NCBI GenBank assembly: GCA_963837695.1
Contig: CAWINZ010000005.1
Span: forward strand, 220,155-284,154
Length of the DNA stretch: 64,000 bases
Reading direction: 5' to 3'
From: an uncultured Solirubrobacterales bacterium
Lineage (GTDB): Bacteria > Actinomycetota > Thermoleophilia > Solirubrobacterales > 70-9
Numbering within the stretch: the stretch's first letter is position 1; the number at the start of each line of letters is the position of its first letter. A program made the position numbers and the translations under genes. Below the pieces are notes generated by a model that saw only the letters and a program-made list of their open reading frames with translations, did no database searches and had not been told where the DNA came from. Below are positions 33,219 through 51,455 of the stretch, in pieces.

Positions 33219-33259
33219 CGCGCCCGACAGGATTCGAACCTGTGACCTTCGGTTTCGTA
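33219..33259 (-). repeat. att repeat R1: copy of the tRNA-Arg 3' half (outermost junction)
   Basis: cgcgcccgacaggattcgaacctgtgaccttcggtttcgta is identical to 51382..51422 of the intact tRNA. Confidence 0.85.
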
Positions 33260-33389
33260 ACCCGAGACGGTGGATCGGCTGGGCTACGTGGAGCCCGGTT
33301 TCAAGCGGTTTCCGGCGAATCGAGTCCCGCTGGGATCGGCTGGAATCTGTGGGGCATGTTGCCCCATTTGTTGCCCCAGGGATGGAGAC

Positions 33390-34067
33390 TCAAGCAACGA
33401 GGGCAATCACTATGCCGGCGATTCCGACGAGGCCACCAATTGCTCCGATGATGATGCCCAGGCGGTTGCGTCGGTAGTCCTCGGCGGCGCCAACTGCCTC
33501 GCGAAGCTTGCGACTCAGCTCGTCGGCTTTGTCAGAGGCGGTTCGCAGACATTCGGCGCCATAGATCCAATCGCTCCACTTATGAGCCGTCTTTCGCGTC
33601 CGACCTTCCTCCATCCAGAAGCGCACCTCACGCTCAAGTTCCTGGATCTCCTCGGCGCTGGCAACGGAGGGCAACTTGCCGTGGTCAACGAGGCGGGCGG
33701 CGTTTGCGTAGTAGCGATCCCAGATGCCGTCCTTCTTCAGCTTGCCGAGGCGTGCCTTGGCAACGACCTCGAAGGACTCCATCATCGTTCGACGCAGATG
33801 ATCCTCGAAATTGGTGAGCTGGTCGCGCTGCTCCTCGTTAGAGAGATCCGGAGCGCTCTCGGCAAGGCGCGCGAGATGCGAGAGAGCCTCGGTGAGGTTG
33901 TTGCGGCCGATCCGGTTGTAGATGCGGGCATGCTCCTCGGCATAGCGATGTGCCTCCATCACCGTGAGGATGCGCGTGGAGAGAACCTCGAACATGCGCT
34001 CGACCTGCTCGCGGTAGACACCGGCGATCCGCTCGTCGGCGCTCGTCGGGGTAGAGGGGTTCTGCAC
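33390..34067 (-). CDS. hypothetical protein with C-terminal TM anchor
   Basis: 225-aa ORF, helical and charged, ending RLGIIIGAIGGLVGIAGIVIALVA. Confidence 0.55.
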   Translation of the reverse strand: MQNPSTPTSADERIAGVYREQVERMFEVLSTRILTVMEAHRYAEEHARIYNRIGRNNLTEALSHLARLAESAPDLSNEEQRDQLTNFEDHLRRTMMESFEVVAKARLGKLKKDGIWDRYYANAARLVDHGKLPSVASAEEIQELEREVRFWMEEGRTRKTAHKWSDWIYGAECLRTASDKADELSRKLREAVGAAEDYRRNRLGIIIGAIGGLVGIAGIVIALVA

Positions 34068-34097
34068 CGCTAACCGCCTAAGCCTGCCGAGAACTGG

Positions 34098-34388
34098 CTA
34101 GCAGCGAGTTGGGATCGGCGGTTTGGCGGGCGGACGGTAGCCCTCGGGTAGAGGCGGCAGCTCCTTGAGCAGTTCGTCCCCAAGTGCCGCGAGCTCAAGC
34201 AGCTCGCTCTCCGTGTAGGAGTCGAGCACCGAACCCACCTCGCCGCCCATCTCAGAGCCGGGACCCTCGGGCAGATCGATCAACTCCGGAAGATCCTCCA
34301 GTGCAGTAAGCGAGACTTCCTCAGCCGAGATCCCCAGGCGAGTCGATGCCCAGGAATGAAAGAACGTGTCGTCGCGCGAAGAAGTCAT
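34098..34388 (-). CDS. hypothetical acidic protein
   Basis: ORF 34098..34517 trimmed to MTSSRDD, which is preceded by a GGGAGGG Shine-Dalgarno-like sequence. Confidence 0.4.
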   Translation of the reverse strand: MTSSRDDTFFHSWASTRLGISAEEVSLTALEDLPELIDLPEGPGSEMGGEVGSVLDSYTESELLELAALGDELLKELPPLPEGYRPPAKPPIPTRC

Positions 34389-34679
34389 CGAAGGAGAGCC
34401 CTCCCGCTCCTCATGGGAAGAAGCGAAGCTCGGCCTGGTAGCGAGGAAGCGACAGGGGACGAACAAGGACGGCGTCCGTAGGTCCCATAGCGGAAGCGTA
34501 CCCACTTCGCATCGCATTCATGCTCTTCAACCCATCGGACGGAAATCCTTCGGCACGCATGGTCTCACCCCCCAAGCCTTCGATTGCTCGGCAGACTTAT
34601 ATCGCCTGGCGGCGAAGGGAGTCGCCTCCCACACCGGGGAACGTCGCTGCCGCCGTTACGACCCCTGGCTGGAGTGCGC

Positions 34680-35204
34680 TCACGCATCGCCCACGGTTAG
34701 CTCGGGAAGCATCTTTGAGAGAAAGTCCTCAGCGGACTTGCGAATGCGTAGATCTCCAGCTCTGAGGCAGTCGAGGACTGCCAGGATTTCACCGAGTTGG
34801 GGCCATCCCTCGACCGCCTCCGGCGCCGCAGTATGCAACGGCTCGATTGCCTGCCCCCGGACCTCCCCATGGGCGTAGGGCCAGACCGGAGGCGGCTCGT
34901 CGCCTGAGGAGCGGATCGCGCCCGCCATCGGCTCCGCCGCCCATGCCGCAGGCACGCCCGGCGTCAGTGCACCGAGCCGAGCAGGAGCAGCAAAGCGAAG
35001 TGCATGAAGCGCGAACTCCTCGAAGTGAGGGAGATGGACTTCGCGACCGTCTACTGAATACAGATCCACGCCCTTCGCTCGCTCCAGCGCACGCTGTACG
35101 ACCGGGTGCGGAACACGGAGACGCTCCGCAAGCGACCTGTAGCTCCAAGCCTCATCGTGGGCGAGCAATCCGCCGAGGACATAGATGTCGGAATTCTTGA
35201 TCAC
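34680..35204 (-). CDS. hypothetical protein with N-terminal winged-helix-like segment
   Basis: 174-aa ORF. SYRSLAERLRVPHPVVQRALERA looks like a wHTH recognition region. Confidence 0.45.
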   Translation of the reverse strand: MIKNSDIYVLGGLLAHDEAWSYRSLAERLRVPHPVVQRALERAKGVDLYSVDGREVHLPHFEEFALHALRFAAPARLGALTPGVPAAWAAEPMAGAIRSSGDEPPPVWPYAHGEVRGQAIEPLHTAAPEAVEGWPQLGEILAVLDCLRAGDLRIRKSAEDFLSKMLPELTVGDA

Positions 35205-35445
35205 GATGGCGAAGGGTATCGAGTATCAATACACGATACAATCGAATGCGGAGCGGATGGCTATTCGAACCCCTGATCGTCCGCCACGTGGCGGGGCGCA
35301 CACTCGGTGCCCGGCCCGTTTAGCTGCCCGATCTGGATCGACTCGTCGTCCCAACCCCAAACCGAGAAACCAGCCGCCGCGAGTTCGTCAAGGACCGCAT
35401 CGAGCCTTGCCTTCGCCTCTGCGATGTCCATCGGTCCAGCCCCCG

Positions 35446-35869
35446 TCAGAGCTCGACCGCCTCATCGAGAACGCGGTCGCGCATGTAGGGCGACAGGCTG
35501 GCCTCGGTGACGACATCCACCTGGACCCCAAGGCGTTCCTCCAGGTCGTTAGACAGTGCGATCAGGTCAAACAAGGTCCGGCCCTCCGCCATGTCAACGA
35601 GAAGATCGAGATCGCTGGAGGCACCATGTTCCCCACGTCCGGTCGAACCGAACAAAGCGAACGTTGCCCGCCCCGTGGGCGGTAGCAATGCGGCGCACAT
35701 CCTTCCGAATCTCCGTCAGCTCCTCGATGCGCTCGAGCTCGTCGCGGTCGAGCCCGCCGGCGCGGCGCAAGCGCTTGGCCAACTGGCGTAGTCGCTCCGC
35801 GCGGTCGTTCGTCTCCTCGATCTCGTATCCCGCCTCCGCTTTCCTGGCAAGGACATCCGACCAGGGCAT
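35446..35869 (-). pseudogene. MNT-type nucleotidyltransferase (HEPN/MNT antitoxin-like), +1 frameshifted
   Basis: The N-terminal part (..IRKDVRRIATAHGAGNVR) is in frame 35594..35869. The catalytic part (LFGSTGRGEHGASSDLDLLV) is in frame 35446..35700. The frames join if one T of the run at 35654-35656 (minus-strand TTT) is removed. Confidence 0.6.
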
Positions 35870-36142
35870 CGGTTATTTGCTTGCCGCTGGCCGTCCTGCC
35901 GTAGGTTTTCCTCGTCGTCGGTCGCACAGACAACATGTATCCTAGAAGCTGTGGGCTACAAGCGGGTCAAGACCGAGCACGCTGGGGCTAAGAACGGGCT
36001 ACAACCCGCTGACCGGACCCCGTTCAGCGGTCCGATTTCAAGGGGTCGGGCCAGCCCCAGGCGTTGCCCCAGCGGCAATCTCGCACTGTTCGAGTGACCC
36101 TCGAAAGGCCGGAATTCCGCTCCACAAGCGGGATTCCGCCAA

Positions 36143-36184
36143 CGCGCCCGACAGGATTCGAACCTGTGACCTTCGGTTTCGTAG
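36143..36184 (-). repeat. att repeat R2: tRNA-Arg 3'-half copy flanked by both conserved arms (attP-like junction)
   Basis: 42 nt identical to 51382..51423. The conserved arm ~36054-36142 lies on one side and 36185-36304 on the other. Confidence 0.85.
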
Positions 36185-36317
36185 CCCGAGCCCGTGGATC
36201 GGCTGGGCTACGTGGAGCCCAGTTTCAAGCGGTTTCCGGCGAATCGAGTCCCGCTGGGATCGGCTGGAATCTGTGGGGCATGTTGCCCCAATTGTTGCCC
36301 CAGGAGGCTGATTCGGG

Positions 36318-36758
36318 TCACGATCCGGGGAGTTGGACGCACTCGAAGGCGAGGACCTCTGCGAGCTTGTCGAAGTGCGTGTCGCGGTGCAGAACCGCCA
36401 CCCCGCCGTGCTCGGCCGCCGCGGCGGCAACGAGTGCATCCGTGATGGGCACCCGGTGGTATCCGTCGCCGCGCTCGGCCAACTCGCCGACAGCGGCCAT
36501 CGCCGCGTCGGTCACGGCGCGATCGTTGCGAAGGATTCGCAGCGAATCGAGCTCGCTCTCGAGTTCGAGATACTCGGAGCTACTGCGGGCCGAGTAAAGA
36601 ATCTCCATCCGCACAATTGGTGTGATCCAGAGGCGATCGGCAAGGATTGCGTCGTCCACGAGCGAGCGAAGTTCATCGGGAAGCGAGGCGATACGCCACC
36701 ACGCCGAGGTGTCGGCGACGAAGGGCGCATCGCTGCGCAACAACTCCAAGGCGTTCAC
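36318..36758 (-). CDS. vapC: PIN-domain toxin VapC
   Basis: FVADTSAWW (first Asp), EILYSA, and ITDALVAAAAAEHGGVAVLHRDTHFD (last Asp), a typical PIN pattern. Confidence 0.8.
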   Translation of the reverse strand: MNALELLRSDAPFVADTSAWWRIASLPDELRSLVDDAILADRLWITPIVRMEILYSARSSSEYLELESELDSLRILRNDRAVTDAAMAAVGELAERGDGYHRVPITDALVAAAAAEHGGVAVLHRDTHFDKLAEVLAFECVQLPGS

Positions 36759-36765
36759 CGCGCCG

Positions 36766-36933
36766 CTACTGCTCGTGGTCGGTCAGCTGCTCAATCCGCT
36801 TGAGCACGCCGCGGTCCAACCCGTCCGGGCTTTGCAAACGCTTGGCCAGCATGCGCAGCCGCTCGGCGCGCTTCTCCTCGCTCAGCGCCGGCTTCTCCGC
36901 AGTGGGAGTCGTGCTCGGGATCGGATGGCTCAC
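36766..36933 (-). CDS. possible 55-aa antitoxin upstream of vapC
   Basis: Own codon-by-codon translation: VSHPIPSTTPTAEKPALSEEKRAERLRMLAKRLQSPDGLDRGVLKRIEQLTDHEQ. It ends 7 nt before the vapC GTG. Below the ORF-track cutoff. Confidence 0.4.
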   Translation of the reverse strand: MSHPIPSTTPTAEKPALSEEKRAERLRMLAKRLQSPDGLDRGVLKRIEQLTDHEQ

Positions 36934-37001
36934 AGAGCCAGAATAGCGCGCGAGTCCGCTACTTCAGCGCTCCCAGCAAGACTGGCCGATACCTTCTCAG
37001 C

Positions 37002-37226
37002 ATGACCACTCGCGAGAAGCTGGAAAAGCTGCTCGACCGGTTCTCCGAGGACGAGCTGTCGGCGGAGTACGCGCGACTGCGGGAAGTCGTCGCAGGAAAA
37101 CGCCCTGCCGATAACCGGGCCAATCTTGAACAGTTCAGCGCCCGCGCCTCACGCGGCGTTCTCCGCCACATGGCCGAAGACGAAGAAGCGGCGGGACTCT
37201 CCTGGGAGGAGTTCCAGCCGCGGTGA
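37002..37226 (+). CDS. possible antitoxin (74 aa) coupled to a MazF-like fragment
   Basis: Its stop overlaps the next start as GTGA (37223-37226). Acidic and helical. Confidence 0.4.
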   Translation: MTTREKLEKLLDRFSEDELSAEYARLREVVAGKRPADNRANLEQFSARASRGVLRHMAEDEEAAGLSWEEFQPR

Positions 37227-37340
37227 CACGCGGCTGGGTCTGGTGTCACGAGCCGCCAGACAAAAAGCTACGCCCAGCTCTCGTCCTCACGAGCGACGAA
37301 GCCATCAGCGTCGCCAAAAACACCCTTAATCCGACTGCGC
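37223..37340 (+). pseudogene. N-terminal fragment of a PemK/MazF-family toxin
   Basis: TRGWVWCHEPPDKKLRPALVLTSDEAI resembles the RG.iw.v......K.RPalVl MazF N-terminus. The rest of the listed ORF is antisense to the 323-aa gene. Confidence 0.4.
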
Positions 37341-37345
37341 CAGCC

Positions 37346-38317
37346 CTACTCGACCAGTCGCCGCAACTCGTCGGTAAGCCGCTGCTCAAGGTGCCTGATA
37401 GTGGAGTAACTGATGCATCTCTCACTTTGGACATCGAACTTCAGATCGGAACCGTCATGACGCAGCAGCACGGTGGGAACCTCGGCTCCCCAGGCGAATC
37501 CAACCTCCAAGTAGACATTGGGGTTGGCGTCCGTGAGATCCGCGACAACCAGCGTCGCCGAGCGGATTCTCTCCTTGATGCGTTCTGGAATGCTGCCGGT
37601 GAACGCCTGCTCGTCAATCCGCTCGCAGAGCAAGCCGCTCTTGTGCACCGCAGGTTCGATGGCATAGTGGAAGATGTCTTCGAATTCTTGTGAGAAGGGC
37701 ATCGCCACGAACGCATGGTCCCGAGTGGCGGCGGTCGCTTCCGTTGACCGGCGTAGCCCCTTTGAAATCTCGCCCGTGGAAGTGGAAGTCAGTGACCCCG
37801 TCAGGCGCGACGTGGGAATCGCTTCCTCAAGGCGGATGCGAAGCCGCTCGGCGCGCTGCTCGTCCAACTCAACGATAGAAACTCGTTTGAGACTGCCCGC
37901 GGTCCGCCCCTCAATCCCTTCGACAATCCCCGCAAGCTCCGCTTCAAAACAAGCGGCCTCATCCAATCCATAGCCGACTCCGTGCAGGGTCAGGGCCAGG
38001 TCTTGACAGTCTGGAAACTCTGCCACCGCAAGGGATACCGCCCGGCGCCCGAACAGGCGAATCTCCGTGTAGCCGAAATCCGAAAGGGGCGGCACACCCA
38101 AGAAAACCACATTAGATGGCCCTACCTTTTCGGGACTGCGCACCACTAGCTGACCTCCAGGCCGAAGGTCCATCTCTAAATCCAGTCCAAGCCGTTCCTT
38201 TGCCGCCGCATCCACGCCAAGTGAAACCTGGGCGTGCTTGAGTACGAGCACATCGGAGGTGATAGCCAAAACATCGGCCGGGTCGACGTCGATAGCCACT
38301 CCCTGCAACTCCACCAT
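37346..38317 (-). CDS. two-domain cargo protein: unknown N-domain plus nucleoside 2-deoxyribosyltransferase/TIR-like C-domain (defence-effector candidate)
   Basis: 323-aa ORF. The C-terminal HAFVAMPFSQEFEDIF...ATLVVADLTDANPNVYLEVGFAWGAEVPTVLL matches the Rossmannoid pattern F.aMPF ... aDlt..NpNV.yE.GyA.g...p. Confidence 0.7.
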   Translation of the reverse strand: MVELQGVAIDVDPADVLAITSDVLVLKHAQVSLGVDAAAKERLGLDLEMDLRPGGQLVVRSPEKVGPSNVVFLGVPPLSDFGYTEIRLFGRRAVSLAVAEFPDCQDLALTLHGVGYGLDEAACFEAELAGIVEGIEGRTAGSLKRVSIVELDEQRAERLRIRLEEAIPTSRLTGSLTSTSTGEISKGLRRSTEATAATRDHAFVAMPFSQEFEDIFHYAIEPAVHKSGLLCERIDEQAFTGSIPERIKERIRSATLVVADLTDANPNVYLEVGFAWGAEVPTVLLRHDGSDLKFDVQSERCISYSTIRHLEQRLTDELRRLVE

Positions 38318-38402
38318 AGACGGCAGCTTAATCGGTTCTGGATACCCCTGGACCTTTCACTGGATTGTTCCCGGTCGCACACCACAGCTTTACCGCGAGC
38401 GT

Positions 38403-39629
38403 TCAAGACCAAAACGAACCTCTCGCAATGGCGCATTGCGAGACCATTTCCAACGGCGGCGCCTCGTCGCCCGGCAGCAGATGCGTGTAGCGGGTCAGCG
38501 TGAAGGCGGGCGAGTGGTGGCCGAGGGCTCGGCTCAGTTGGAGGAGGTTGGTGCCTTGGCTGAGGTGGAGCGAGGCGAAGGTGTGGCGGAACGTGTGGAA
38601 GCCCGCCCAGGGGGTGCCTGCCTCCTCTGCGAGGGGCTTCAGGACGCGGCGACGGAGGTTGCCCGGGTCGAGCGGGCCTCCGGCTTCGTTGGGGAAGGCG
38701 AGGGCGGTCGAGTCCCGGTCGGGCTGGGCGGCGAGATGGTCGCGCAGGCTCGCCGCCACTGATGCCGGTAGGCGGACCTCGCGTCGGCCGTGCCTGCTCT
38801 TGGGCGGCTCGATCCGCTCGCGGACGATCGCTCGGCGGATGCAGACCTCGGGCTCTGGGCCGTCAAGTTGAAGGTGCAGGCGTTGGAGGGCGATCGCCTC
38901 GCTGATCCGCAGGCCGCAGCTCGCCAGGAGCTCGAAGAGCGGGCGGTGGCGCTCGGGGGCTGTCGCCAGGAGCGCTGAGAGCTGCTCGCGGCTGAAGACC
39001 TTGATCTCCTCGCCCTCGTCCTCGAGCCGCTCGCGCTGGGGCAGCGCGAGGCCCTGAGCGGGGTTGTGGCGGATCAGGCCCTCGCGCTTGGCGGTCGCCA
39101 GGGCGGCGCGGATCGGTATCGCGACGTTGGCGATCGTGCGGTCGCTGAGGCGCTTGCCCTGCTCCTGCTCGTCGGCGAGCCAGTCGAGGAAGCGGGCGAG
39201 CTGGTAGGCGCTCAGCTCGGTGAGCTTCAGCCTGCCGGAGAAATAGCGGCGGGCGTAGATGCGGATCAGGCGCCGGTATTCGTCGCGGGTGTTCTCGCGG
39301 AAGCCCCGGCGGCCCTGGCCCCGATAGCGCTCGACCCACTCCTCCAGGTAGCGCAGGAAGGAGATCGTCGTGCGCTCCTGCAGCTCGCCGCGGTCGCGGT
39401 CGGTCTCGCTCTCGCGCTTGATCCGCTTTGCCTCCTCGTAGGTGCGGGCGCTGCGCTTGCGCTGCCTGCCGGCGCTGCGGAAGACGCAGACGTAGCCGAT
39501 CACGTCGCCGCCGGCGCCGAGCCGCTTGAAGACGCCTGGCGTCTTGGTCTTCTGGAGCCGCCGCTTGTCACCGCAGCCTGGACCGGCCGCAAGGGCCGAC
39601 GTATCCTGGGAAACGCTCATGAGCATCAC
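38403..39629 (-). CDS. int: tyrosine recombinase / phage-type integrase (element E2)
   Basis: The C-terminal catalytic region has GLRISEA, HTFRHTFAS and GHHSPAFTLTRYTHL (R..HxxR..Y). Confidence 0.9.
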   Translation of the reverse strand: MMLMSVSQDTSALAAGPGCGDKRRLQKTKTPGVFKRLGAGGDVIGYVCVFRSAGRQRKRSARTYEEAKRIKRESETDRDRGELQERTTISFLRYLEEWVERYRGQGRRGFRENTRDEYRRLIRIYARRYFSGRLKLTELSAYQLARFLDWLADEQEQGKRLSDRTIANVAIPIRAALATAKREGLIRHNPAQGLALPQRERLEDEGEEIKVFSREQLSALLATAPERHRPLFELLASCGLRISEAIALQRLHLQLDGPEPEVCIRRAIVRERIEPPKSRHGRREVRLPASVAASLRDHLAAQPDRDSTALAFPNEAGGPLDPGNLRRRVLKPLAEEAGTPWAGFHTFRHTFASLHLSQGTNLLQLSRALGHHSPAFTLTRYTHLLPGDEAPPLEMVSQCAIARGSFWS

Positions 39630-39740
39630 CTCGTGAGCCGGGGGCGGGCCGTTAGCGCGGCGCCGCCCCGTTTTGCGTTGTCGGACAAGACGTTAACAGG
39701 AAGATGCGGCCTGTCAGCCTGCTCCAACGATGGAGAGATG

Positions 39741-39812
39741 GGTTCGCTATGGGGTTCGCACTGCGGTTCGCACTGTAGTTCGCACTGCGGTTCGCACTGC
39801 ACTTCGCATGAG
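39741..39812. repeat. six tandem 12-bp repeats (consensus gGTTCGCACTGc) upstream of int
   Basis: Units read directly: ggttcgctatgg, ggttcgcactgc, ggttcgcactgt, agttcgcactgc, ggttcgcactgc, acttcgcatgag. Confidence 0.85.
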
Positions 39813-43099: not shown

Positions 43100-45247
43100 C
43101 TAAGCCGCCAGGGACCAGAGATTCCAATCTCCGGCCCCCTTCAACTCTAGCTTGCCCATTTTGGCCCAGTCGAAATCGTGGGCGTTGATCCTGACCCGAT
43201 CATCCGTTACCACCAGGTTCGGCCGCGCCTGATCGCAAATGCGAGCCGCGACGTCCACATCGCGGCCGCGGAGATTTCCGAATTGATCCTTTCTCGCCAC
43301 ACCTTTGGTGAGGCCGGCCCGCGCCACGAGCTTGTCGCTGCCCGGATCAATGACCAAGTCCCTAAGGCACTTGATCGCAGCCATCGGCTCCTCAAATGCA
43401 AGAAGAAAGCCGTCTCCCGTGTCGTTGATGCGCATGCCCTTGTATTTCTTGAGGAGGCTGCGCATGCGCTTCTCGTGTGCGTTCCACTCCAGGGCATAGG
43501 CTTTCTCACCAAGCCGTCCCTTCGCATCCGTTGCACCGGTGAGATCGGTGAACGCGATCACCGTCTCCACCTCTTCAGTGGATGCAAGATCTGAAGCGTC
43601 GTAGGACCGCGAGGCTACATAGGTGATGAACTGCGATTTGTCCGCCCTTCCTTTCGCCGACAGGTTGTGGAAGGACTTCACACTGCGAAACCCCGACTCT
43701 TCAAGCAAGCCGACAAGCTGTTTGCGTTTGAACGGCAGCACGTCGAACGTCCCGACTGGCTTTCCGCTGCTTGAGCGGATGTACTCAAGCGTTAGGACGT
43801 CGTTGTCGATACCGGGCAACTCTGGCATGCTCTTCGGTCGCGCCCGAATCGTGTTGCTGCAGTAGACCACGCGTCCCGGAAAGCGAAAGTCCGGCTTCGC
43901 CATCTGCCGACGCTCGTCGAACATCGTCGGGTAATTGCGCTCATCGACGATCAACAACCCTTCCGGTCGCAGTAGGTAGGCAAAGCGCGTCAGAACCGCT
44001 CGCACGTCGCTGACCGTGCGCAGGCAGCTCAACGAGTTGCCCAAGGCTAAAAGTATGTCGAAAGTCTCTGGCTCGGCCAGATGCTCAAAGTGGCGCCAAT
44101 CAAAGCGGGTCAGGCTGAGGGGCGACCCGCCTTCCCGCTCCGAAAGCTCGGTCGCATGTGCGATCAGCCTCGCATCGATCTCGTTCGAGACAACCCGGTG
44201 CCCTTTGGAAAGCAGGTACGCCGAATCGCAGCCGACCCCGGTGGCGGCGTCGAGGACTGTCGCCTGAGCGAGGCCAATTTCCTCGATCCTGGCCTCCACG
44301 AACGGGCCCAGTTTGGTTACCCTTCTTTCAGGCGCAACAAACTCGTCCCAGACGTCTGCGAGTAGCGGCTCGAACATGCTGTCGAGGCTCCAGAGGATGT
44401 GCTCCTGCAGATCCGTTGGCACGTCGTCGGTAACAATCGTGTCATTGTTGAGGCTGACCAGTTCCGCTTGTTCGACGAGGCGGGCCACGTATCGCAGATA
44501 TGCCCGGAACCTGTCATCGAAGGGGTAGACAAGCTCCAAACGCAATCTGTTGTTGTTCGGCTTGACGTTTTCCTCAAAAAGCAGTGCGCAGGTGTTCACC
44601 CACAGGCCGAGATCACCGGTCCACTCTTCGTTCAGGACAGCATCGTGAATCAGCGCGTGCTTCTGGGGCTCGATGCACAGAGGGGTGATGTGGTGCCGTT
44701 TGTGCTCTTGAAAATATCGCCTGGCAAGGTCCGGATTACTGTCGAAATCCGCCTGCAGCGCCTTTACGGATTGGGGGATGATTCTCACGGACCTGGGAGC
44801 GTGGCACTCATGATGCGCAACAGTTGAAGAGAGATCGTCGTGGTCCTCGGGATCGCCCTCTGCGAGGTTGCCAAGCAGAAAGGGGTGGACCTGGAGAAAG
44901 CGACTCGGTGGGTGCGAGTCCACCCCGATGTAGATGTCTTGGATGGTGCTGTAGAACAGCGAGACGACGGCCTCCATCTGGTGGAGCGGAATCCGGATCT
45001 CCTGCTGTGCAGGGATGGCGTCGCCTTTCCCTCTGAGCAGGTCGACGAGCTGCTGCCCTGAGTTATCGAGGAACGCCTCCATGATCTCCTCTGCGACTCG
45101 CTGGTCATGGGCGATGGGACGCCGTCGCCCATTGGGAATCTCGATGCCGAGCTTCGACAACAGTTCAATGAACCGGAGCTCCAGTTTGGAGGAAGATTCT
45201 TTGTCTCGTCGAGAGTCAGACATAAAACACAGAAGTTCGTTTACCAA
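43100..45247 (-). CDS. three-module fusion protein: unknown N-domain, GNMT-like class I SAM methyltransferase, class III nucleotide cyclase
   Basis: MTase motifs: VLDAATGVGCDS, VVSNEID, FDILLALGNSLSCL, RPEGLLIVDERNY. Cyclase motifs: VIAFTDLTGAT, INDTGDGFLLAF, ARAGLTKG, GRDVDVAARI, ELKGAG. The listed start is TTG; the ATG at 45223 (MSDSRRDK) is the likelier start. Confidence 0.85.
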   Translation of the reverse strand: MVNELLCFMSDSRRDKESSSKLELRFIELLSKLGIEIPNGRRRPIAHDQRVAEEIMEAFLDNSGQQLVDLLRGKGDAIPAQQEIRIPLHQMEAVVSLFYSTIQDIYIGVDSHPPSRFLQVHPFLLGNLAEGDPEDHDDLSSTVAHHECHAPRSVRIIPQSVKALQADFDSNPDLARRYFQEHKRHHITPLCIEPQKHALIHDAVLNEEWTGDLGLWVNTCALLFEENVKPNNNRLRLELVYPFDDRFRAYLRYVARLVEQAELVSLNNDTIVTDDVPTDLQEHILWSLDSMFEPLLADVWDEFVAPERRVTKLGPFVEARIEEIGLAQATVLDAATGVGCDSAYLLSKGHRVVSNEIDARLIAHATELSEREGGSPLSLTRFDWRHFEHLAEPETFDILLALGNSLSCLRTVSDVRAVLTRFAYLLRPEGLLIVDERNYPTMFDERRQMAKPDFRFPGRVVYCSNTIRARPKSMPELPGIDNDVLTLEYIRSSSGKPVGTFDVLPFKRKQLVGLLEESGFRSVKSFHNLSAKGRADKSQFITYVASRSYDASDLASTEEVETVIAFTDLTGATDAKGRLGEKAYALEWNAHEKRMRSLLKKYKGMRINDTGDGFLLAFEEPMAAIKCLRDLVIDPGSDKLVARAGLTKGVARKDQFGNLRGRDVDVAARICDQARPNLVVTDDRVRINAHDFDWAKMGKLELKGAGDWNLWSLAA

Positions 45248-45414
45248 ACTGGCGGAGTTGCGGCAATCTAACGCATGAAGCCGACGACCACACGTCTGCG
45301 AATGGCCTCAGGCCTATCTAAGCCAGCGCATCACTCAGCTTGGCGCGGCAAGGATGGACGCGGTCTGCTTAACACTTAGCCAAGGCCACAAGTTGCGGCT
45401 GATCCCTCGGAAGA

Positions 45415-47415
45415 TCAATTTTTATCCTCGCTGGTTGCCGGGGCAAACCAGTGCCGCAGGGTCCGCCTCACACGCGGGGTTAGATTGGCGGCAAGCCAGG
45501 CGCGAGCAACCAAGAAATTCCAACCGGTCACAAGGCTGACGACGCCGCTGAGGGTAAGGAGGAACACAAGTCCCGAGCCGAGGGGAACTAGCTTTGACCA
45601 CGATGAGGGAAAGAGGCCCTGGGCGGCTGCGGCACAGGCGGCGATAAGCAGCAAGAGGGCGAATCCAAAGGCCGTCCACGAGATCGCGGAAGCCAACTGG
45701 TCGGCACGAGCGTCGAGACGGTCGGCGTGGCGGGTGGCGACGCGCTCGGCCCGCGCAGCCTCGGCGCTCGCGCGATCCTTTTCGGCCGCTACGGCGGCGT
45801 CGGAACGCTTGCGAAGCGCTCGCTCCCGCTTAAGCTCGTCCTCCACCTCCGCCCGCGCTGCCTGCTCGGCACGACGAAGAACCTCAGTGATGGTGCCAGC
45901 AGCGACAGCCTCAACGTCGCCGTCGGTGGCATTCATCAACTCGAGGCGGGCATCAGGCGAGAACAGCAGGAGACCGACCTGCTCCTCGCTAAGCTCGCCG
46001 CGCTCTTGTAGACGGCGGATCTCGGTCAGGTATTTGCGCCAGACATCCTCAGGCGGATTCAGGGCCGCATAGCTGATTGCGATGATCTGCCGACGAGGAA
46101 GATCAGAGGCTTGCGATGGGTTCATCAGCCAGACGATTGCGGCAAGGCTGTAGTCAGACATGCAGACCGGCACTGAACGGTGCCCGAAAATCTCGGCGAA
46201 GAAGGCGCGAGAGACGTGAGCTAGCGTGGTGTTGGTCGTAACAAGCAGCGCGTCGGCGCTCTCGATGTGGCGGCGAACCTCACCGCTGCGAAGCCGATAG
46301 ATCGCAGCCAGGGAGTCGAGATCCTTGACCATGGTGCCGTGAAGACGGTAGTGGACGCCATCTTTCAACGCCCTTCCCAACTCCTTCTCCGAAAGTTCAA
46401 TCTCTTCCGTGCGCTCGGGCGTGCCGACAACTTCGATCGCACGAGCGTCGAGCCGTTCGCTGAGCGCCGCGATGTCCATCTCGACATCGCTGCGGCTTAG
46501 GCTCTTCGACGCGAAGTAGTCGACCACATCGCCAGGGACATGGTCCTTCTTTCGTCCGGTGCGGTAGGTAGCAGCCGCGCCATCGAGGACTCCCTCGACC
46601 TCATGCAGGGTGTGCTCGAAGATGCGCAGCTTGGCGTCCTCTCCCGCCAGCAAGTCAACCAGTTCTTCGACCGGCTCCCTGTACTGCTCCTCGGCGTATC
46701 CCAGTGCGCGCAGAACGACTGGCGTATCGAGGTAGACCTCAACATCGGACAAGCGAGCACGGCCACCCGAGAACGTCTCCGGCAGAAAAAGAACGTTGGC
46801 CAACATGGATCCCTTGACAATCGTCGCCAAGTACTCGAAGGCCTGCGGCTCCTTGTGACAAAGATCGAGGACGAACCGACTGGTGACAACCGCGCCCTCG
46901 GACTCGATCTTAGGCAGCTCGACGACCGGTTCGCCGTCCACCACCGCGCCAAGTACCGGCTCAGCGAGAACCTCGACGTAGCCGAGTAGGGCCCGCTCAG
47001 CCTGCTCCTCGCTCCACTCGCGCCCCACGCCAGCAGCGAAATCGACCAGGAGGCCAACCAGATGGTTGTGCTGGCGGACAACATCTTCCCGCTCGGAGCC
47101 GAGGTCGAACTCGCGCAAAGCCTCCGGAATGCGTTCATAGGCACCGTGGCGACGACGAAGCAACCCATCGCGGGACATGCGGCCAAGGATCGTCTGCAGG
47201 GCACCCTGCGGGATGTGAAGGCCGAAGTCGCTGGCAACCAAAGCCTTGGTGTCGGGCAACGAAATCTTCTCGTGCTCCCCGCGGCGAATGCAGTCAGCGA
47301 CAATCGGGACGAAGTTGGCTATGTAGTCCTTGTCCTCATCCCAGTTGACCTTGATCACGGCCAAGGCCGAAATCGCCTTGAGAAGATCCACTGGAAGCAC
47401 GGCGGGCGCACTCAT
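45415..47415 (-). CDS. 666-aa protein of unknown function with Ala/Arg/Glu-rich coiled coil and two C-terminal TM helices (effector candidate)
   Basis: Long clean ORF in lower-GC DNA. The C-terminus has AISWTAFGFALLLLIAACAAAAQGLF and LVPLGSGLVFLLTLSGVVSLVTGW. Confidence 0.8.
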   Translation of the reverse strand: MSAPAVLPVDLLKAISALAVIKVNWDEDKDYIANFVPIVADCIRRGEHEKISLPDTKALVASDFGLHIPQGALQTILGRMSRDGLLRRRHGAYERIPEALREFDLGSEREDVVRQHNHLVGLLVDFAAGVGREWSEEQAERALLGYVEVLAEPVLGAVVDGEPVVELPKIESEGAVVTSRFVLDLCHKEPQAFEYLATIVKGSMLANVLFLPETFSGGRARLSDVEVYLDTPVVLRALGYAEEQYREPVEELVDLLAGEDAKLRIFEHTLHEVEGVLDGAAATYRTGRKKDHVPGDVVDYFASKSLSRSDVEMDIAALSERLDARAIEVVGTPERTEEIELSEKELGRALKDGVHYRLHGTMVKDLDSLAAIYRLRSGEVRRHIESADALLVTTNTTLAHVSRAFFAEIFGHRSVPVCMSDYSLAAIVWLMNPSQASDLPRRQIIAISYAALNPPEDVWRKYLTEIRRLQERGELSEEQVGLLLFSPDARLELMNATDGDVEAVAAGTITEVLRRAEQAARAEVEDELKRERALRKRSDAAVAAEKDRASAEAARAERVATRHADRLDARADQLASAISWTAFGFALLLLIAACAAAAQGLFPSSWSKLVPLGSGLVFLLTLSGVVSLVTGWNFLVARAWLAANLTPRVRRTLRHWFAPATSEDKN

Positions 47416-47614
47416 AACGCGCGCCCTCTTGCCGCGACGATGCGCTCGCTAAAGCTCACACGACCCCTTCCCGCCTTCAAGGCACAGACCCTCCCCGAAT
47501 GTCATTTTTCCCAGGCAGCCAGGCTACGCGGCATCAGGACTTCGAGCGTTCTCGTACCTGCAATTTCCGGTACTTAATTGATCCGGTCCCGACGCTCTGC
47601 GACGCCAAACGCAG

Positions 47615-48829
47615 TCAAGGCTCTTCGCCACGGCGTCGGTGCGACAGATCGAGCGCCGGCGCCTCGTCGCCGGGCAGCAGATGCGTGTAGCGGGTCAGCG
47701 TGAAGGCGGGCGAGTGGTGGCCGAGGGCTCGGCTCAGTTGGAGGAGGTTGGTGCCCTGGGCCAGATGGAGCGAGGCGAAGGTGTGGCGGAACGTGTGGAA
47801 GCCCGCCCATGGGGCGCCTGCCTCCTCTGCGAGGGGCTTGAGGACGCGGCGACGGAGGTTGCCCGGGTGGAGCGGGCCTCCGGCCTCATTGGGGAAGGCG
47901 AGGGCGGTCGAGTCCTGATCGGGCTGGGCGGCGAGATGGTCGCGCAAGCTCGCCGCCACCGATGCCGGTAGGCGGACCTCGCGTCGGCCGTGCCTGCTCT
48001 TGGGCGGCTCGATCCGATCGCGGACGATGGCGCGGCGGATGCAGACCTCGGGCTCGGGGCCGTCAAGCTGAAGGTGCAGGCGCTGGAGGGCGAGCGCCTC
48101 GCTGATCCGCAGGCCGCAGCTCGCCAGGAGCTCGAAGAGCGGGCGGTGGCGCTCGGGGGCTGTCGCCAGGAGCGCTGAGAGCTGCTCGCGGCTGAAGACC
48201 TTGATCTCCTCGCCCTCGTCCTCGAGCCGCTCGCGCTGGGGCAGCGCGAGGCCCTGAGCGGGGTTGTGGCGGATCAGGCCCTCGCGCTTGGCGGTCGCCA
48301 GGGCGGCGCGGATCGGTATCGCGACGTTGGCGATCGTGCGGTCGCTGAGGCGCTTGCCCTGCTCCTGCTCGTCGGCGAGCCAGTCGAGGAAGCGGGCGAG
48401 CTGGTAGGCGCTCAGCTCGGTGAGCTTCAGCCTGCCGGAGAAATAGCGGCGGGCGTAGATGCGGATCAGGCGCCGGTATTCGTCGCGGGTGTTCTCGCGG
48501 AAGCCCCGGCGGCCCTGGCCCCGATAGCGCTCGACCCACTCCTCCAGGTAGCGCAGGAAGGAGATCGTCGTGCGCTCCTGCAGCTCGCCGCGGTCGCGGT
48601 CGGTCTCGCTCTCGCGCTTGATCCGCTTTGCCTCCTCGTAGGTGCGGGCGCTGCGCTTGCGCTGCCTGCCGGCGCTGCGGAAGACGCAGACGTAGCCGAT
48701 CACGTCGCCGCCGGCGCCGAGCCGCTTGAAGACGCCTGGCGTCTTGGTCTTCTGGAGCCGCCGCTTGTCACCGCAGCCTGGACCGGCCGCAAGGGCCGAC
48801 GTATCCTGGGAAACGCTCATGAGCATCAC
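47615..48829 (-). CDS. int: tyrosine recombinase / phage-type integrase (element E3b)
   Basis: Differs from the E2 integrase by six substitutions plus a different C-terminal tail. Confidence 0.9.
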   Translation of the reverse strand: MMLMSVSQDTSALAAGPGCGDKRRLQKTKTPGVFKRLGAGGDVIGYVCVFRSAGRQRKRSARTYEEAKRIKRESETDRDRGELQERTTISFLRYLEEWVERYRGQGRRGFRENTRDEYRRLIRIYARRYFSGRLKLTELSAYQLARFLDWLADEQEQGKRLSDRTIANVAIPIRAALATAKREGLIRHNPAQGLALPQRERLEDEGEEIKVFSREQLSALLATAPERHRPLFELLASCGLRISEALALQRLHLQLDGPEPEVCIRRAIVRDRIEPPKSRHGRREVRLPASVAASLRDHLAAQPDQDSTALAFPNEAGGPLHPGNLRRRVLKPLAEEAGAPWAGFHTFRHTFASLHLAQGTNLLQLSRALGHHSPAFTLTRYTHLLPGDEAPALDLSHRRRGEEP

Positions 48830-48940
48830 CTCGTGAGCCGGGGGCGGGCCGTTAGCGCGGCGCCGCCCCGTTTTGCGTTGTCGGACAAGACGTTAACAGG
48901 AAGATGCGGCCTGTCAGCCTGCTCCAACGATGGAGAGATG

Positions 48941-49012
48941 GGTTCGCTATGGGGTTCGCACTGCGGTTCGCACTGTAGTTCGCACTGCGGTTCGCACTGC
49001 ACTTCGCATGAG
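48941..49012. repeat. six tandem 12-bp repeats (same array as 39741..39812)
   Basis: Identical sequence at an offset of 9200 nt. Confidence 0.85.
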
Positions 49013-49070
49013 CCGATGCCGAAACCGAGGCAAAGCCGCATTGGAAGAGGCTTTGCGGCGACCACGCTTT

Positions 49071-49723
49071 GCTGACTTCTATATGTCGAACTAGCTTCTT
49101 TCCAGATTCGCTGTCGGTTGCCCTCGGGCTCGCGGTCCGTCCGCATCCGTCAGCCTCGCCGTGGCTCTGCTGATCTTCGCCTGCCGGTCCCCCCCGGCGC
49201 GGCTCGTCGTCACTCGCCGCGCGTCGCCCCCATCCGGCTCCGACGCGGTTTCCGCTGGGGTTTACCCAGACGTTGACACCGGGGTTGCCCGTGCGGTTGA
49301 CACAGCCGATCGACCGGGGACGTGCGAAGCCGCCTGTGGCGCGGCGTTGCGACGACTCCCGTTCGCTGACATCTATTTGTCGAACCGATCAAGCGGGAGG
49401 CCTGCCAGCGGCAGTCAGAGCGCTTCGTTGCATGCTCGTCTTGCGGCTCGTTTCGTGGCTCGTTTCGTAGCTCGTTTCGTAGCTCGTTTCGTAGCTCGTT
49501 TCGTGGCTCGCACGAACCGGAGTCGGTGGCGGCGCAAAGTCGCTTGCCATCTGGCATTGCGGCCGTGCCGCTTCGCTGACATCTATCTGTGGAACTAGCT
49601 TCTTTCCAGATTCGCTGTCGGTTGCCTCAGGCTCGCGGACCGTCCGCGTCCGTCAGCCTCGCCGTGGCTCTGCTGATCTTCGCCTGCCGGTCCCCCCGGC
49701 GCGGCTCGTTGTCACTCGCCGCG
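49071..49723. repeat. ~150-bp direct repeats (49071-49221 and 49575-49723) bracketing a ~350-bp insert absent from E2
   Basis: Both copies align to the single E2 segment at ~39871-40021 (gctgac.tctat.tgt.gaactagcttctttccagattcgctgtcggttgcc...). Confidence 0.8.
49445..49516. repeat. second, different 12-bp tandem array ((g/a)GCTCGTTTCGT x5 plus one degenerate unit)
   Basis: Units read directly: ggctcgtttcgt x2, agctcgtttcgt x3, ggctcgcacgaa. Confidence 0.85.
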
Positions 49724-50008
49724 GGTCTGTGCGTCGCTCGACGGCGGGCTGTCGATCTCGTAGCGCCCGTCCCCCGTTCCGACGAAGCTCGGCCTGTAGG
49801 AGATGCCGTCGAGCAGCTCGGCGGGCGAGACCGAGAGCGCGCCTGCGAGTCTGACGACGACATCCAGGGTGGGGACGTTGATCTGCCGCTCGTATTTCCG
49901 GACGGCGTCGCGGCTGAGCGAGGCGCGGAGCGCCAGCCCTTCCTGGGTGAGACCCGCACGCTTGCGGAGGCCGATCAGGTTCTCGGCGAAACGGGCCTGG
50001 AAGCTCAC
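49712..50008 (-). CDS. XRE-family HTH regulator (identical to 40009..40305)
   Basis: The listed ORF 49712..50074 is identical in protein sequence to the E2 copy. Trimmed in the same way. Confidence 0.7.
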   Translation of the reverse strand: MSFQARFAENLIGLRKRAGLTQEGLALRASLSRDAVRKYERQINVPTLDVVVRLAGALSVSPAELLDGISYRPSFVGTGDGRYEIDSPPSSDAQTRGE

Positions 50009-50294
50009 GGCGCCTGCTGCGGATCGTCCACCTCGAAGCGGCCCTCCACGACCTCGACGTGTCCGGGCGTCCACTTGAAGCCGGCGAGGAGGTCGCCCAC
50101 GGGGACCGAGACAGCGCCCGCGAGCCTGACGATCGTGTCGATCCTCGGCGTCCGCGCTCCCCGCTCCAGCAGCCCGATCGCCGTGCGATGGAGCCCGGCC
50201 CGGTAGCCGAGCTCTTCCTGAGAAGCCCAGCCTGCTCGCGGCAGCGGGCGAGGTTGCGGCCGAACTGGGCGGCGACCTCGGCTGAACGCTTCAA
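50005..50294 (-). pseudogene. XRE-family HTH gene with the same -1 frameshift as 40302..40591
   Basis: Same DNA at an offset of 9703 (cttcctgagaagcccagcct at 50211-50230). Confidence 0.55.
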
Positions 50295-50668
50295 AGGAGA
50301 AGGCCCTCGGGCACTTCGGCTGGCCCGCCCTTGACCAGCGTGGCGACGATCACGCCGCTGCGGCTCGTGTGCCCGCCCTCGACCGTCCAGCGGTCGCTGA
50401 TCTGGCCCGCCGTGAGGACCGGCATGCCGCCGCGCAGCTTCTCGACCTCCCGCCGACCCGCCGGGACTTCGACCAGGCAGCTCGCGCAGCGCCACAGCGA
50501 GCGCGGGCAGTCGGGGTCGGTCACTGGGAACTCGATCCGCAGAAGCGTCACGCGCTCGCCCACGGGGCTGCGGCCCTCCTGAGGGTCGGCGCTCAGCCTG
50601 CCGGTGAGGACGGCGTGGTTGATCTCGGGCGGCCCTCCCGTGGGGAGCGGAGCGCTGCCCGCGATCAC
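50291..50668 (-). CDS. SSB-like OB-fold protein (mosaic paralogue of 40588..40977)
   Basis: The C-terminal half is identical to the E2 copy. The N-terminal half is diverged and 4 aa shorter. Confidence 0.55.
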   Translation of the reverse strand: MIAGSAPLPTGGPPEINHAVLTGRLSADPQEGRSPVGERVTLLRIEFPVTDPDCPRSLWRCASCLVEVPAGRREVEKLRGGMPVLTAGQISDRWTVEGGHTSRSGVIVATLVKGGPAEVPEGLLL

Positions 50669-51069
50669 TCCGCTTCCTCGCGCCTGCGGATCTCGAGCAG
50701 CACTTCGGCGCCCGCGTCGAGGACCAACTCGTAGCGCTGACGATTGGCCTCGTCGACCTCGCGGGCCTCATGCTCGTCCGCCGACTCGCCCAGGGCGCCC
50801 TGGGCGTCGCCGCGCAGCCGGTTCATGATCGCCGTCAACTCGCCGGGCGGAATCGTCAGCGGGACCGCTATGCGCTCGTCCGGTCCCCAGCCGATGTCAT
50901 CGAGCAGGCGGAAGTCCTCGGCGAACTCCCTGGCAAGCCGCCTGGCGGTTTCGACGTCCCCGCGGTCGATTGCTATCCGCACGTCTCCGAGGCCGCCCAA
51001 ATGCTCAATCAGGAGCTCGTGGACGGCATCTCGTTTCTTGCCGGTGATCACTGCGACCACCTCGGTCAT
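50665..51069 (-). CDS. hypothetical 134-aa backbone protein (diverged paralogue of 40974..41378)
   Basis: ORF trimmed to MTEVVAVITGKKRD, which follows the RBS GGAAGGAGA. Confidence 0.6.
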   Translation of the reverse strand: MTEVVAVITGKKRDAVHELLIEHLGGLGDVRIAIDRGDVETARRLAREFAEDFRLLDDIGWGPDERIAVPLTIPPGELTAIMNRLRGDAQGALGESADEHEAREVDEANRQRYELVLDAGAEVLLEIRRREEAE

Positions 51070-51349
51070 GGCGTTCTCCTTCCGGTCGGGCACCGAAAGA
51101 GCCGCCGCGGATGCCGCCCCCATAGGGCTACGGCGGTACCGTCTCTCCCGCATCGAAGGTGATCCCTTCGGTGCCGGCCCCGGGGCGTTTGCGCGCTGCC
51201 GGGGCGCTTTTCTTCAGTTGTCGCGGCCGAACGTAGGTGGACGGGAGCGCCGTCTCAAGGCCCGCCGCCGACCCTCGCTCGCTTCTCATGTTGCCCCAGG
51301 CGTTGCCCCAGCGGCAATCTCGCACTGTTCGAGTGACCCTCGAAAAGCC

Positions 51350-51376
51350 GCAATCCCGCTTCACAAGCGGGATTGC
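51350..51376 (-). terminator. 10-bp stem hairpin just downstream of tRNA-Arg (element-borne; also present at R2 and R3)
   Basis: gcaatcccgc / ttcacaa / gcgggattgc read directly. Confidence 0.5.
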
Positions 51377-51381
51377 CGGAG

Positions 51382-51455
51382 CGCGCCCGACAGGATTCGA
51401 ACCTGTGACCTTCGGTTTCGTAGACCGACGCTCTATCCAACTGAGCTACGGGCGC
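51382..51455 (-). tRNA. tRNA-Arg (anticodon ACG), integration target
   Basis: Hand-folded 74-nt cloverleaf: acceptor GCGCCCG/CGGGCGC, anticodon arm TCGGT-CTACGAA-ACCGA, T arm ACAGG-TTCGAAT-CCTGT. CCA is not encoded. Confidence 0.9.

Follow-up and report, generated by a model that had tools for sequence, protein, structure and literature searches.

A probable tandem array of small integrative elements at a tRNA-Arg(ACG) gene of a Solirubrobacterales genome

We examined positions 33219-51455 of a 64-kb window (the whole stretch of DNA analyzed; 68% G+C) from a metagenome-assembled genome (MAG) of Solirubrobacterales. The region appears to be an integration hotspot, occupied by a tandem array of small (3-10 kb) elements of a single family that accumulated through successive rounds of site-specific recombination in the 3′ half of a tRNA-Arg(ACG) gene. 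We give this reading a probability of about 0.85, because of the anatomy of the array, the family-wide association with the tRNA gene, the existence of empty sites, the fixed geometry of the attachment-site arms and the catalytic residues of the integrases. Coordinates are those of the window; units and the junctions R1-R4 are numbered from the low-coordinate end, and C0 denotes the core copy within the tRNA gene itself.

Tandem accretion at tRNA genes is already known as a process. Stacks of elements of one specificity, in which the internal att sites are chimeric and some units lack an integrase but retain att sites at both ends (cis-mobilizable elements, CIMEs), have been described as products of site-specific accretion (PMC5704250). 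Islander counted 125 tandems of two or more and four of three or more among 3919 islands, with more than half of the attP sites centered on the anticodon (PMC4383910), and neighboring tycheposons are separated by partial tRNA sequences, with remnants at the distal end (bioRxiv 10.1101/2020.12.28.424599). For the present family no description was found in the literature searched (one paper library, in which none of the papers listed for Solirubrobacterales with integrase and tRNA-Arg contained the name of the order).

The array would serve as a natural record of the growth of a tRNA-linked island by accretion, with complete elements, a deletion derivative and a fused composite side by side. The family to which it belongs is very common and consists of minimal, integrase-only elements that carry toxin-antitoxin and defense-like genes among soil Solirubrobacterales. 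The family-level observations of worth are the fixed arm geometry, a swap of core between tRNA-Arg and tRNA-Met, and a recurrent variant junction that we call star. An attP so well defined, with fixed doublets and an exchangeable Arg/Met core, could be developed into a tool for integration in an actinobacterial group that is hard to manipulate, and could also model integrase retargeting.

Cores, arms and junctions

The att features comprise a core derived from the tRNA gene and two arms, A_lo (P′ arm) on the low-coordinate side and A_hi (P arm) on the high-coordinate side:

51381-51455, minus strand: tRNA-Arg(ACG) gene, the integration target (ARAGORN; Rfam tRNA model, 73.7 bits)
51286-51381, minus strand: P′ arm (A_lo) of unit 4, with terminator-like hairpin and TTGCCCCA doublet
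42835-42938, minus strand: P arm (A_hi) of unit 4 at R4, degenerate, TTGCCCCA doublet lost
42793-42834, minus strand: star core R4, with loop CTACGAA, 20-nt insertion TCGGACCGTCCAAGTGCGAA, then ACCGAAGGTCACAGG
41595-41852, minus strand: complete attP-like junction R3, made of unit-2 A_lo (41595-41690), core (41691-41732) and unit-3 A_hi (41733-41852), with two TTGCCCCA doublets
36054-36306, minus strand: junction R2, made of truncated unit-1 A_lo (36054-36142, one TTGCCCCA), core (36143-36184) and unit-2 A_hi (36185-36306)
33219-33380, minus strand: outer attR-type end R1, made of core (33219-33260, 41/42) and unit-1 A_hi (33261-33380), with no A_lo on the low side

C0 is the 42-nt 3′ part of the tRNA gene (51382-51423), from anticodon loop to discriminator. 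A preliminary description of this DNA had reported that this core recurs through the region, and it does: direct-orientation copies at 36143 and 41691 are identical to C0, that at 33219 agrees at 41 of 42 positions, and a modified copy lies at 42793-42834. A 35-nt core pattern matched at 33226, 36150, 41698 and 51389 with 0-1 mismatch, none being expected from shuffled sequence, and its central 20-mer matched at 42792 as well. The block of identity is bounded by tRNA position 32 (51423, the 5′ edge of the anticodon loop) and the discriminator (51382), the start at the anticodon loop being that of the known tRNA-island class. As in tRNA-integrating genomic islands, an intact tRNA gene stands at one end and a correctly oriented 3′-fragment repeat at the other, an arrangement also found at ~40 related loci. 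The measured spacings of 2924, 5548, ~1100 and ~8590 bp agree with the unit sizes first given (~3.0, 5.6, 1.2 and 8.6 kb). The array is better described as three elements bounded by canonical cores than as four units, units 3 and 4 forming one composite.

The arms were also largely as first described. A_lo (96 bp) is identical at the tRNA gene and R3; the copy claimed for R2 is 95% identical but truncated, with a single TTGCCCCA, and the arm comparison found no A_lo at R1 or R4. A_hi (~120 bp) is present at all of R1-R4, with 97-100% identity between R1 and R2 and 83-86% for R3 and R4. The doublet said to end it is there at R1-R3 but gone from R4, which retains one degenerate TTGCCCCA. This motif occurs 12 times in the window against 0.9 expected, always on the plus strand, and 11 of the copies lie within arms (the doublet of unit-4 A_lo is at 51291-51298 and 51303-51310). 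The internal junctions are arm-core-arm, completely at R3 and nearly so at R2, and the outer ends are attL/attR-like, the tRNA end lacking A_hi and the R1 end lacking A_lo. Elements in direct orientation are thereby joined through hybrid att sites that take one arm from each neighbor, as in accretion arrays.

A hairpin in A_lo (~51341-51376; 12-bp stem and U-tract, folding at -25.7 kcal/mol, z -3.2) was not called by a simple terminator scan and was seen on folding; from its sequence it looks terminator-like, for the regenerated tRNA. The likeness of the start of A_hi to a tRNA 5′ half also held up. Its core-proximal part resembles the acceptor and D-arm region in the right register (p ~0.01-0.05 against shuffles; local alignment of GCTCCACGTAGCCCAG with GCGCC-CGTAGCTCAG), and the Rfam tRNA model, aligned over model positions 6-65 to core plus arm, scores 29.0 bits at R2, 24.3 at R3 and 23.7 at R1 (gathering score 29). 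A_hi (33261-33380, 36185-36306 and 41733-41852) itself goes back to an ancient tandem duplication of a ~60-nt unit resembling the tRNA 5′ half and anticodon arm (the self-alignment scores 35, against a shuffle maximum of 34), so that the P arm looks like the fossil of an earlier junction.

We propose the following mechanism. A complete element would carry a tyrosine integrase gene and an attP of P arm, 42-bp core and P′ arm, where the P arm (~120 bp) would contribute a TGGGGCAA doublet and two decayed tRNA-like half-copies, and the P′ arm (~95 bp) the tRNA terminator hairpin and a further TGGGGCAA doublet. Strand exchange, with its crossover presumably in the 7-nt anticodon loop, would insert the element; the core and terminator of the element would regenerate the tRNA gene, and the displaced host 3′ half would come to lie at the far side. 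A later arrival could recombine either with the regenerated tRNA gene or with a resident att site, leaving a hybrid arm-core-arm junction. Unit 1 (33261-36142), the most decayed, would be a CIME-like unit that lost its integrase by a deletion ending in the P′ arm; unit 2 (36185-41690) would be a complete element, and units 3 and 4 (41733-51381) a composite with an internal star junction. Units 2 and 4 would later have exchanged 1.8 kb by gene conversion. The distal elements would be the oldest arrivals, and the family may be active at present. Transfer between cells is assumed to use a helper element or passive routes, because no transfer or replication genes were found.

Related loci and the origin of the units

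The integrase has 1972 homologues at E<=1e-20. Our comparison set was ~130 related loci, among them 80 fetched genome loci and a number of metagenome loci; those metagenome loci that were anchored on the neighboring host gene include empty sites. ARAGORN placed a tRNA-Arg(ACG) gene upstream of int and on the int strand at 44 of the 80 genome loci, mostly at a distance of ~1.3-2.6 kb. Integrase relatives lie downstream of tRNA-Arg(ACG) at ~50 loci of Solirubrobacterales and related MAGs, within the same host neighborhood, whose conserved order is pyruvate kinase, DUF4442, enoyl-CoA hydratase, tRNA, element, metallophosphoesterase. On the far side of the window's array are:

31899-32493, plus strand: host metallophosphoesterase gene, which is conserved as the far edge of the hotspot (syntenic at 11 genome loci and several metagenome loci)
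32507-33199, plus strand: low-GC orphan open reading frame (ORF) of 230 aa, marked by a drop in GC, between the last core and the metallophosphoesterase gene

The search for single-copy elements and empty sites that had been suggested for this region was productive. Most of the ~50 Arg loci hold a single 5-10 kb element with exactly one displaced core, directly preceded by an A_hi that is 85-97% identical to those of the window, and single elements of the family have attL- and attR-type ends. Four sites are unoccupied (L099, L095, L100 and L116): there the distance between the tRNA gene and the metallophosphoesterase gene is 1.1-2.6 kb (18.9 kb in the window), and neither integrase nor repeat is present.

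Arm geometry is fixed across the family. TGGGGCAA doublets occur at -118/-106, counted from the start of the core, and at +71/+83, counted from its end, at nearly all of the ~50 Arg loci, and the motif is invariant, with orientation fixed, while the surrounding arm sequence drifts across species. This gives strong comparative support to the earlier suggestion that the same-orientation doublets on both arms are candidate arm-type integrase sites. A sister clade with ~72-75% identical integrases shares the P and P′ arms and the doublet spacing of the Arg elements, with the 3′ part of tRNA-Met(CAT) serving as core and the identity block likewise starting at the anticodon loop (CTCATAA), which argues that the family has been retargeted by exchanging the core only. 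Members of the tRNA-Met clade include L025, L036, L037, L039, L042-L045, L052, L053, L056, L058, L063, L068, L075 and L077.

At seven of 50 Arg-type loci there are at least three cores within the fetched range, and complete arm-core-arm junctions were found at one Arg locus (L020) and six of 16 Met-type loci. With five cores, two attP-like junctions and one star junction, the array of the window stands at the richer extreme of an arrangement that is common in the family. Mini-units of 1.5-3.7 kb that have both arms and no integrase were seen at L020:4902-8614, L152:18510-20255 and L139:2565-4081; that of L020 has the tRNA gene on one side and an integrase-bearing element on the other, the position that mobilization of such units in trans would predict.

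An assembly artefact, through mis-joining or expansion at the repeated att sequences, is a concern because the contig comes from a MAG, and repeats of 160-260 bp together with a 1.8-kb identical tract can mislead assemblers. We consider it most improbable here: the content of each unit and its junction variants are unique to it, synteny with related genomes holds on the flanks, and comparable arrays were seen in other, independent assemblies, some of them complete-chromosome MAGs (L003, L016, L024, L081 and L162).

The units differ in cargo and in arm sequence, and so cannot be plain copies of a single element. Unit 1 shares 85-93% DNA identity with the lone element in L015, over the distal 2.6 kb of the latter. 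The A_lo of unit 1 is cut off within the outer TGGGGCAA, and with A_hi at R1, truncated A_lo at R2 and no int it has the makeup of a CIME; it is an internal-deletion derivative that lost the integrase and kept both ends. The elements most like unit 4 are those in L081, L162 and L163 (int and the 666-aa gene, 92%). The antitoxin-PIN module of unit 3 is found directly behind the integrase in L004.

The array might also have arrived entirely, or for the most part, in a single event, as a ready-made composite excised from a donor through its outermost cores; transfer of accreted tandems is documented elsewhere (PMC5704250). Composites clearly move about in this family, since in many genomes elements with a single integrase have a block of arm, star, RHH gene and so on to arm and core at their distal end, and for units 3 and 4 we accept such a one-step composite. 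For the array as a whole this origin seems unlikely: beyond units 3 and 4, no locus among the ~130 shares two adjacent units of the array in order, which favors build-up in place, and the closest relatives of the individual units lie in different genomes (L015, L081 and L004).

Units 2 and 4 call for a separate account. They are 100% identical over ~1.8 kb (38896-40720 and 48096-50420), save for a 503-bp insertion in unit 4 (49122-49625) that repeats the int-upstream region in diverged form and has a separate type of iteron. Outside this tract identity is only 65-95% (65-73% over most of the 134-aa gene, 93-96% in the 3′ third of int). The tract is sharp-edged and carries the same frameshift of the gene HTH1 in both units. 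An identical tract with sharp edges in otherwise diverged copies implies gene conversion between already different elements, and the sequences point to such a conversion between residents 2 and 4. The shared tract and frameshift, and the identical P′ arms, could instead reflect tandem duplication or amplification of one resident, by unequal crossing-over between cores or arms, followed by replacement of cargo. We judge this decidedly unlikely, as the tract is flanked by 65-95% sequence and has the sharp edges that are a signature of gene conversion, the cargo differs completely, the P arms differ by 14-17%, and unit 4 has its own nearest relative (L081). Of the two origins first offered for the array, serial integration is supported, and unresolved tandem copies are disfavored except for the 1.8-kb conversion.

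The star junction

R4 had been taken for a decayed core. An altered copy it is, but random decay does not describe it: it is a defined variant core, found family-wide, that reads CTACGAA-TCGGACCGTCCAAGTGCGAA-ACCGAAGGTCAC, with the 20-nt insertion between anticodon-loop position 38 and the 3′ stem. Decayed traces of the T arm lie beyond it at 42770-42792. The star insertion, diverged to ~60-80% identity, was found at 16 further sites downstream of tRNA-Arg and at seven in the Met clade, where it follows CTCATAA. An A_hi arm immediately precedes it in every case, and a terminal A_hi with canonical core follows 1.1-6 kb downstream of each site. No stand-alone star insertion, of the kind that might act as a secondary att site, was found elsewhere in the elements, all 18 matches to a regular expression following an A_hi arm. 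Sites downstream of tRNA-Arg include L002:14514, L009:15220, L011:15819, L018:15552, L022:15393, L057:17290, L066:9121, L067:14143, L071:19867, L072:16136, L078:13092 and L162:12674; those of the Met clade are in L046, L047 (three), L048, L059 and L064, the three of L047 bounding cargo segments in succession.

The block of A_hi, star and the gene for a ribbon-helix-helix (RHH)-like protein is conserved whole in the window, L011 and L022, and L106 and L161 share the L011/L022 type of star core together with its right-hand flank. Because star is a recurrent variant junction of the family, units 3 and 4 are, as far as sequence comparison can tell, one composite element bounded by R3 and the tRNA gene.

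The two sides of star have different affinities. L162 has the element found in L163 and L081, except that star takes the place of the canonical core at its end; the arm and loop there match the local type, while the right half is specific to star. In L011 and L022 an Arg-type loop is joined to a Met-like right half. On the simplest reading, star arose long ago as the internal junction of a composite, lost its function when the right core-type site was shifted by two helical turns, and has been inherited since, with its left side refreshed by gene conversion or by integrase exchange in the loop. A more speculative reading, which we hold as rather doubtful, makes star a working half-site or a selected lock, such that integrase-bearing "drivers" come and go at the tRNA gene while distal cargo stays linked. 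It is suggested by the occurrence of star only after P arms and in both clades with their own loops, by a left side that matches the local element through the end of the 7-nt crossover loop, beside an old, diverged right side (L162 compared with L163 and L081), by the mixture of Arg loop and Met-like half in L011 and L022, and by the three star cassettes in a row in L047. If true, star would build integron-like stacks of toxin-antitoxin and defense cassettes, each bounded by arm and star.

A structured role for a 7-bp hairpin in which the star insertion takes part was considered and set aside: 89.6% of alignment cells are paired and there are two compensatory pairs, giving weak support from covariation, and the copy in the window folds no better than shuffled sequences.

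Integrases, gene content and known systems

As first described, only two units contain an integrase gene, both on the minus strand (units 2 and 4):

47615-48820, minus strand: unit-4 tyrosine integrase, 401 aa (Pfam Phage_integrase, PF00589, 3.5e-16, and SAM-like domain)
38403-39620, minus strand: unit-2 tyrosine integrase, 405 aa (Pfam), 96% identical to that of unit 4

The catalytic residues R238, H342, R345, H368 and Y378 (the R/H-x-x-R/H/Y set) are invariant in 32 homologues, and the closest solved structure is Tn1549 Int. An AlphaFold model gives residues 22-77 as strands 22-24, 30-34, 40-49 and 52-58 and helix 61-77 (pLDDT 81-87); such an N-terminal domain of β-strands and a helix would fit a role in binding TGGGGCAA in the arms.

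Several points weigh against our interpretation of the array. The order of integration is not derivable from the sequence. Excised circles were sought in unit-length contigs (L165 and L168), whose ends fall inside the core, as assemblers produce at repeats, so that a circle and an array junction are indistinguishable there. The 1.8-kb identical tract could be a polishing artefact of long-read metagenome assembly. The N-terminal domain of the integrase matches no arm-binding family in Pfam, and a fold search with the whole model returned only tyrosine recombinases (~180-360 aligned columns) and no arm-binding N-domain, a result uninformative about that domain. No match to the Xis, AlpA or recombination directionality factor (RDF) families was found among the unit ORFs with Pfam, PHROGs and NCBIfam. 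Finally, the frameshift of HTH1 in both integrase-bearing units may mean that the elements are deregulated or inactive. Candidates for the excisionase or RDF are the XRE helix-turn-helix (HTH) proteins and the RHH-like protein.

The remaining genes and repeats of the units are:

50665-51153, minus strand: unit 4, conserved 134/162-aa protein whose gene comes first after attL in most members of the family (tblastn matches in 31-33 loci)
50291-50668, minus strand: unit 4, protein of 125 aa resembling single-stranded-DNA-binding protein (SSB) in its OB fold (likeness through the unit-2 paralogue; no Pfam match)
49712-50295, minus strand: unit 4, two XRE-type HTH genes, HTH1 (50005-50295, frameshifted) and HTH2 (49712-50008, intact) (Pfam HTH_3/HTH_31)
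49434-49510, no strand: unit 4, second 12-nt iteron array, CGAGCYACGAAA, ~6 copies, inside the 503-bp extra copy of the int-upstream region
48941-49008, no strand: unit 4, 12-nt iterons GTGCGAACnnCA, ~5.7 copies, upstream of int
45415-47415, minus strand: unit 4, 666-aa cargo protein with no assigned function, also following int in L081, L162 and L163
43100-45247, minus strand: unit 4, 715-aa cargo protein with SAM-methyltransferase and cyclase-like domains (domain searches)
42500-42751, plus strand: unit 3, small protein, conserved in its C-terminal 66 aa (found in 23 loci), RHH-like by eye
42072-42494, plus strand: unit 3, PIN toxin (Pfam PIN, 3.8e-15; homologue in L004)
41897-42086, plus strand: unit 3, putative antitoxin (homologue in L004)
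40009-41378, minus strand: unit 2 module of 134-aa protein (40974-41378), SSB-like protein (40588-40977), frameshifted HTH1 (40302-40592) and HTH2 (40009-40305)
39741-39808, no strand: unit 2, 12-nt iterons upstream of int, identical to 48941-49008
37346-38317, minus strand: unit 2, 323-aa protein with TIR-like effector domain (PADLOC TIR effector, 5e-13)
36318-36758, minus strand: unit 2, PIN toxin (Pfam PIN, 4.6e-13)
33390-35204, minus strand: unit 1 cargo without integrase, comprising 225-aa and 139-aa hypothetical proteins and a 174-aa PDC-M21A-like candidate defense protein (PADLOC PDC-M21A, 3.6e-28)

Units 2 and 4 share a layout which, going away from the tRNA gene, runs P′ arm, 134/162-aa protein, SSB-like protein, two XRE HTH genes, iteron region (untranslated, with 5-6 iterons of 12 nt), integrase, cargo and P arm. 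The SSB-like protein of unit 2 matches the Deinococcus SSB 1SE8 (E 1.8e-5); the 134/162-aa protein had no match in Pfam, PHROG, NCBIfam or PDB. Exact-sequence look-up of the 134-aa and 666-aa proteins yielded no contigs, although their cluster relatives did yield loci. The frameshift of HTH1 is one missing base (GGGCTT-CTCAGG), the gene being intact in L081, L162 and L163, and is either a real inactivation copied by gene conversion or an error of the assembly consensus. Loci with similar proteins differ in their iteron arrays and orientations, and the XRE HTH proteins or the RHH-like protein are candidates for binding the iterons.

No replication, conjugation, mobilization or virion genes were found in any unit (Pfam, PHROGs and NCBIfam). 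The integrase matches phrog_1, and the layout of integrase, XRE regulators, small genes and iterons recalls satellites such as phage-inducible chromosomal islands, so that the units might be taken for degraded prophages or phage satellites and not autonomous integrative islands. This we regard as very unlikely, since the same searches found no capsid, terminase, primase or packaging gene in any unit, PHROGs gave only integrase and regulator matches, and neither an integrase relative nor the arm motif was found in 2.9 million IMG/VR contigs.

The array can be compared with several known systems. Integrative and conjugative elements, integrative and mobilizable elements and CIMEs (ICESt1/ICESt3 of Streptococcus thermophilus; PMC5704250) likewise stack with one specificity at the 3′ end of a target gene, with chimeric att sites and CIMEs beside complete elements; unlike them, the units described here have no conjugation or mobilization genes, measure 3-10 kb, belong to an uncultured actinobacterial order and are known from sequence alone. 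Class A islands of Islander share the tyrosine integrase, the identity from anticodon loop to 3′ end, the regenerated tRNA, the displaced 3′ fragment and the occurrence in tandem, but the present array has five cores, and its integrase-less units fall outside Islander's rule that an island have its own integrase. Tycheposons of Prochlorococcus are also small, cargo-carrying tyrosine-recombinase elements at tRNA genes, separated by partial tRNAs and with distal remnants, giving rise to variable islands; they differ in phylum, their integrase lineage is unrelated, and the long conserved arms with fixed doublets are a feature of the family described here. A helicase/primase replication module is part of the definition of tycheposons, and none was found in the units of the array.

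The integrases appear to have the organization of the heterobivalent integrases of lambda, Tn916 and Tn1549 (a modeled N-terminal β-sheet and helix, SAM-like core-binding domain, catalytic domain), with repeated motifs, putatively of arm type, on both sides of the core in one orientation and at constant distances; no Xis is recognizable here, however, and the doublets with 12-bp spacing at -118/-106 and +71/+83 are specific to the present family. With the actinomycete integrative and conjugative elements (AICEs) pSAM2 and SLP1 the array shares an actinobacterial host, a target at the 3′ end of a tRNA gene, a tyrosine integrase and small size. By the features tested it is neither an AICE, a satellite nor an integron. 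The scanned unit ORFs of at least 96 aa include no FtsK/SpoIIIE-like Tra, no Rep (RepSA, RepAM or prim-pol), and no Nudix/Pif or spd. Integron-integrase models score 41 bits against a cut-off of 265, the junctions are ~140-bp units of arm and core and not attC, and the star hairpin is weak.

Some further features of these loci may be noted. Iterons of 12 nt lie ~100-500 nt upstream of int in most of the loci L001-L081, in 4-7 copies and at variable positions, often as two or three adjacent arrays of differing sequence in either orientation. The 715-aa protein of unit 4 is an unusual fusion of a SAM-methyltransferase (~320-445) with a C-terminal adenylate/guanylate-cyclase-like domain (~555-713), encoded beside the 666-aa protein. 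A 25-nt match between 32351 and 42151 in unit 3 was dismissed as chance, one copy being in the metallophosphoesterase gene and the other in the PIN gene. The orphan ORF at 32507-33199 may be a remnant of an older insertion; it has a weak PADLOC match to a DRT-associated transmembrane protein (E 6e-4), and its only homologue, in L032, is there too outside the last repeat. A second type of integrase (~41% identity) is found next to the tRNA gene in L008, L126 and L145. A conserved GTTCCG-rich sequence follows the tRNA gene in L088, L103 and L109, and the last repeat in L010, L017, L108, L110 and L124; it probably represents an arm from a different family of elements that also targets this tRNA gene.

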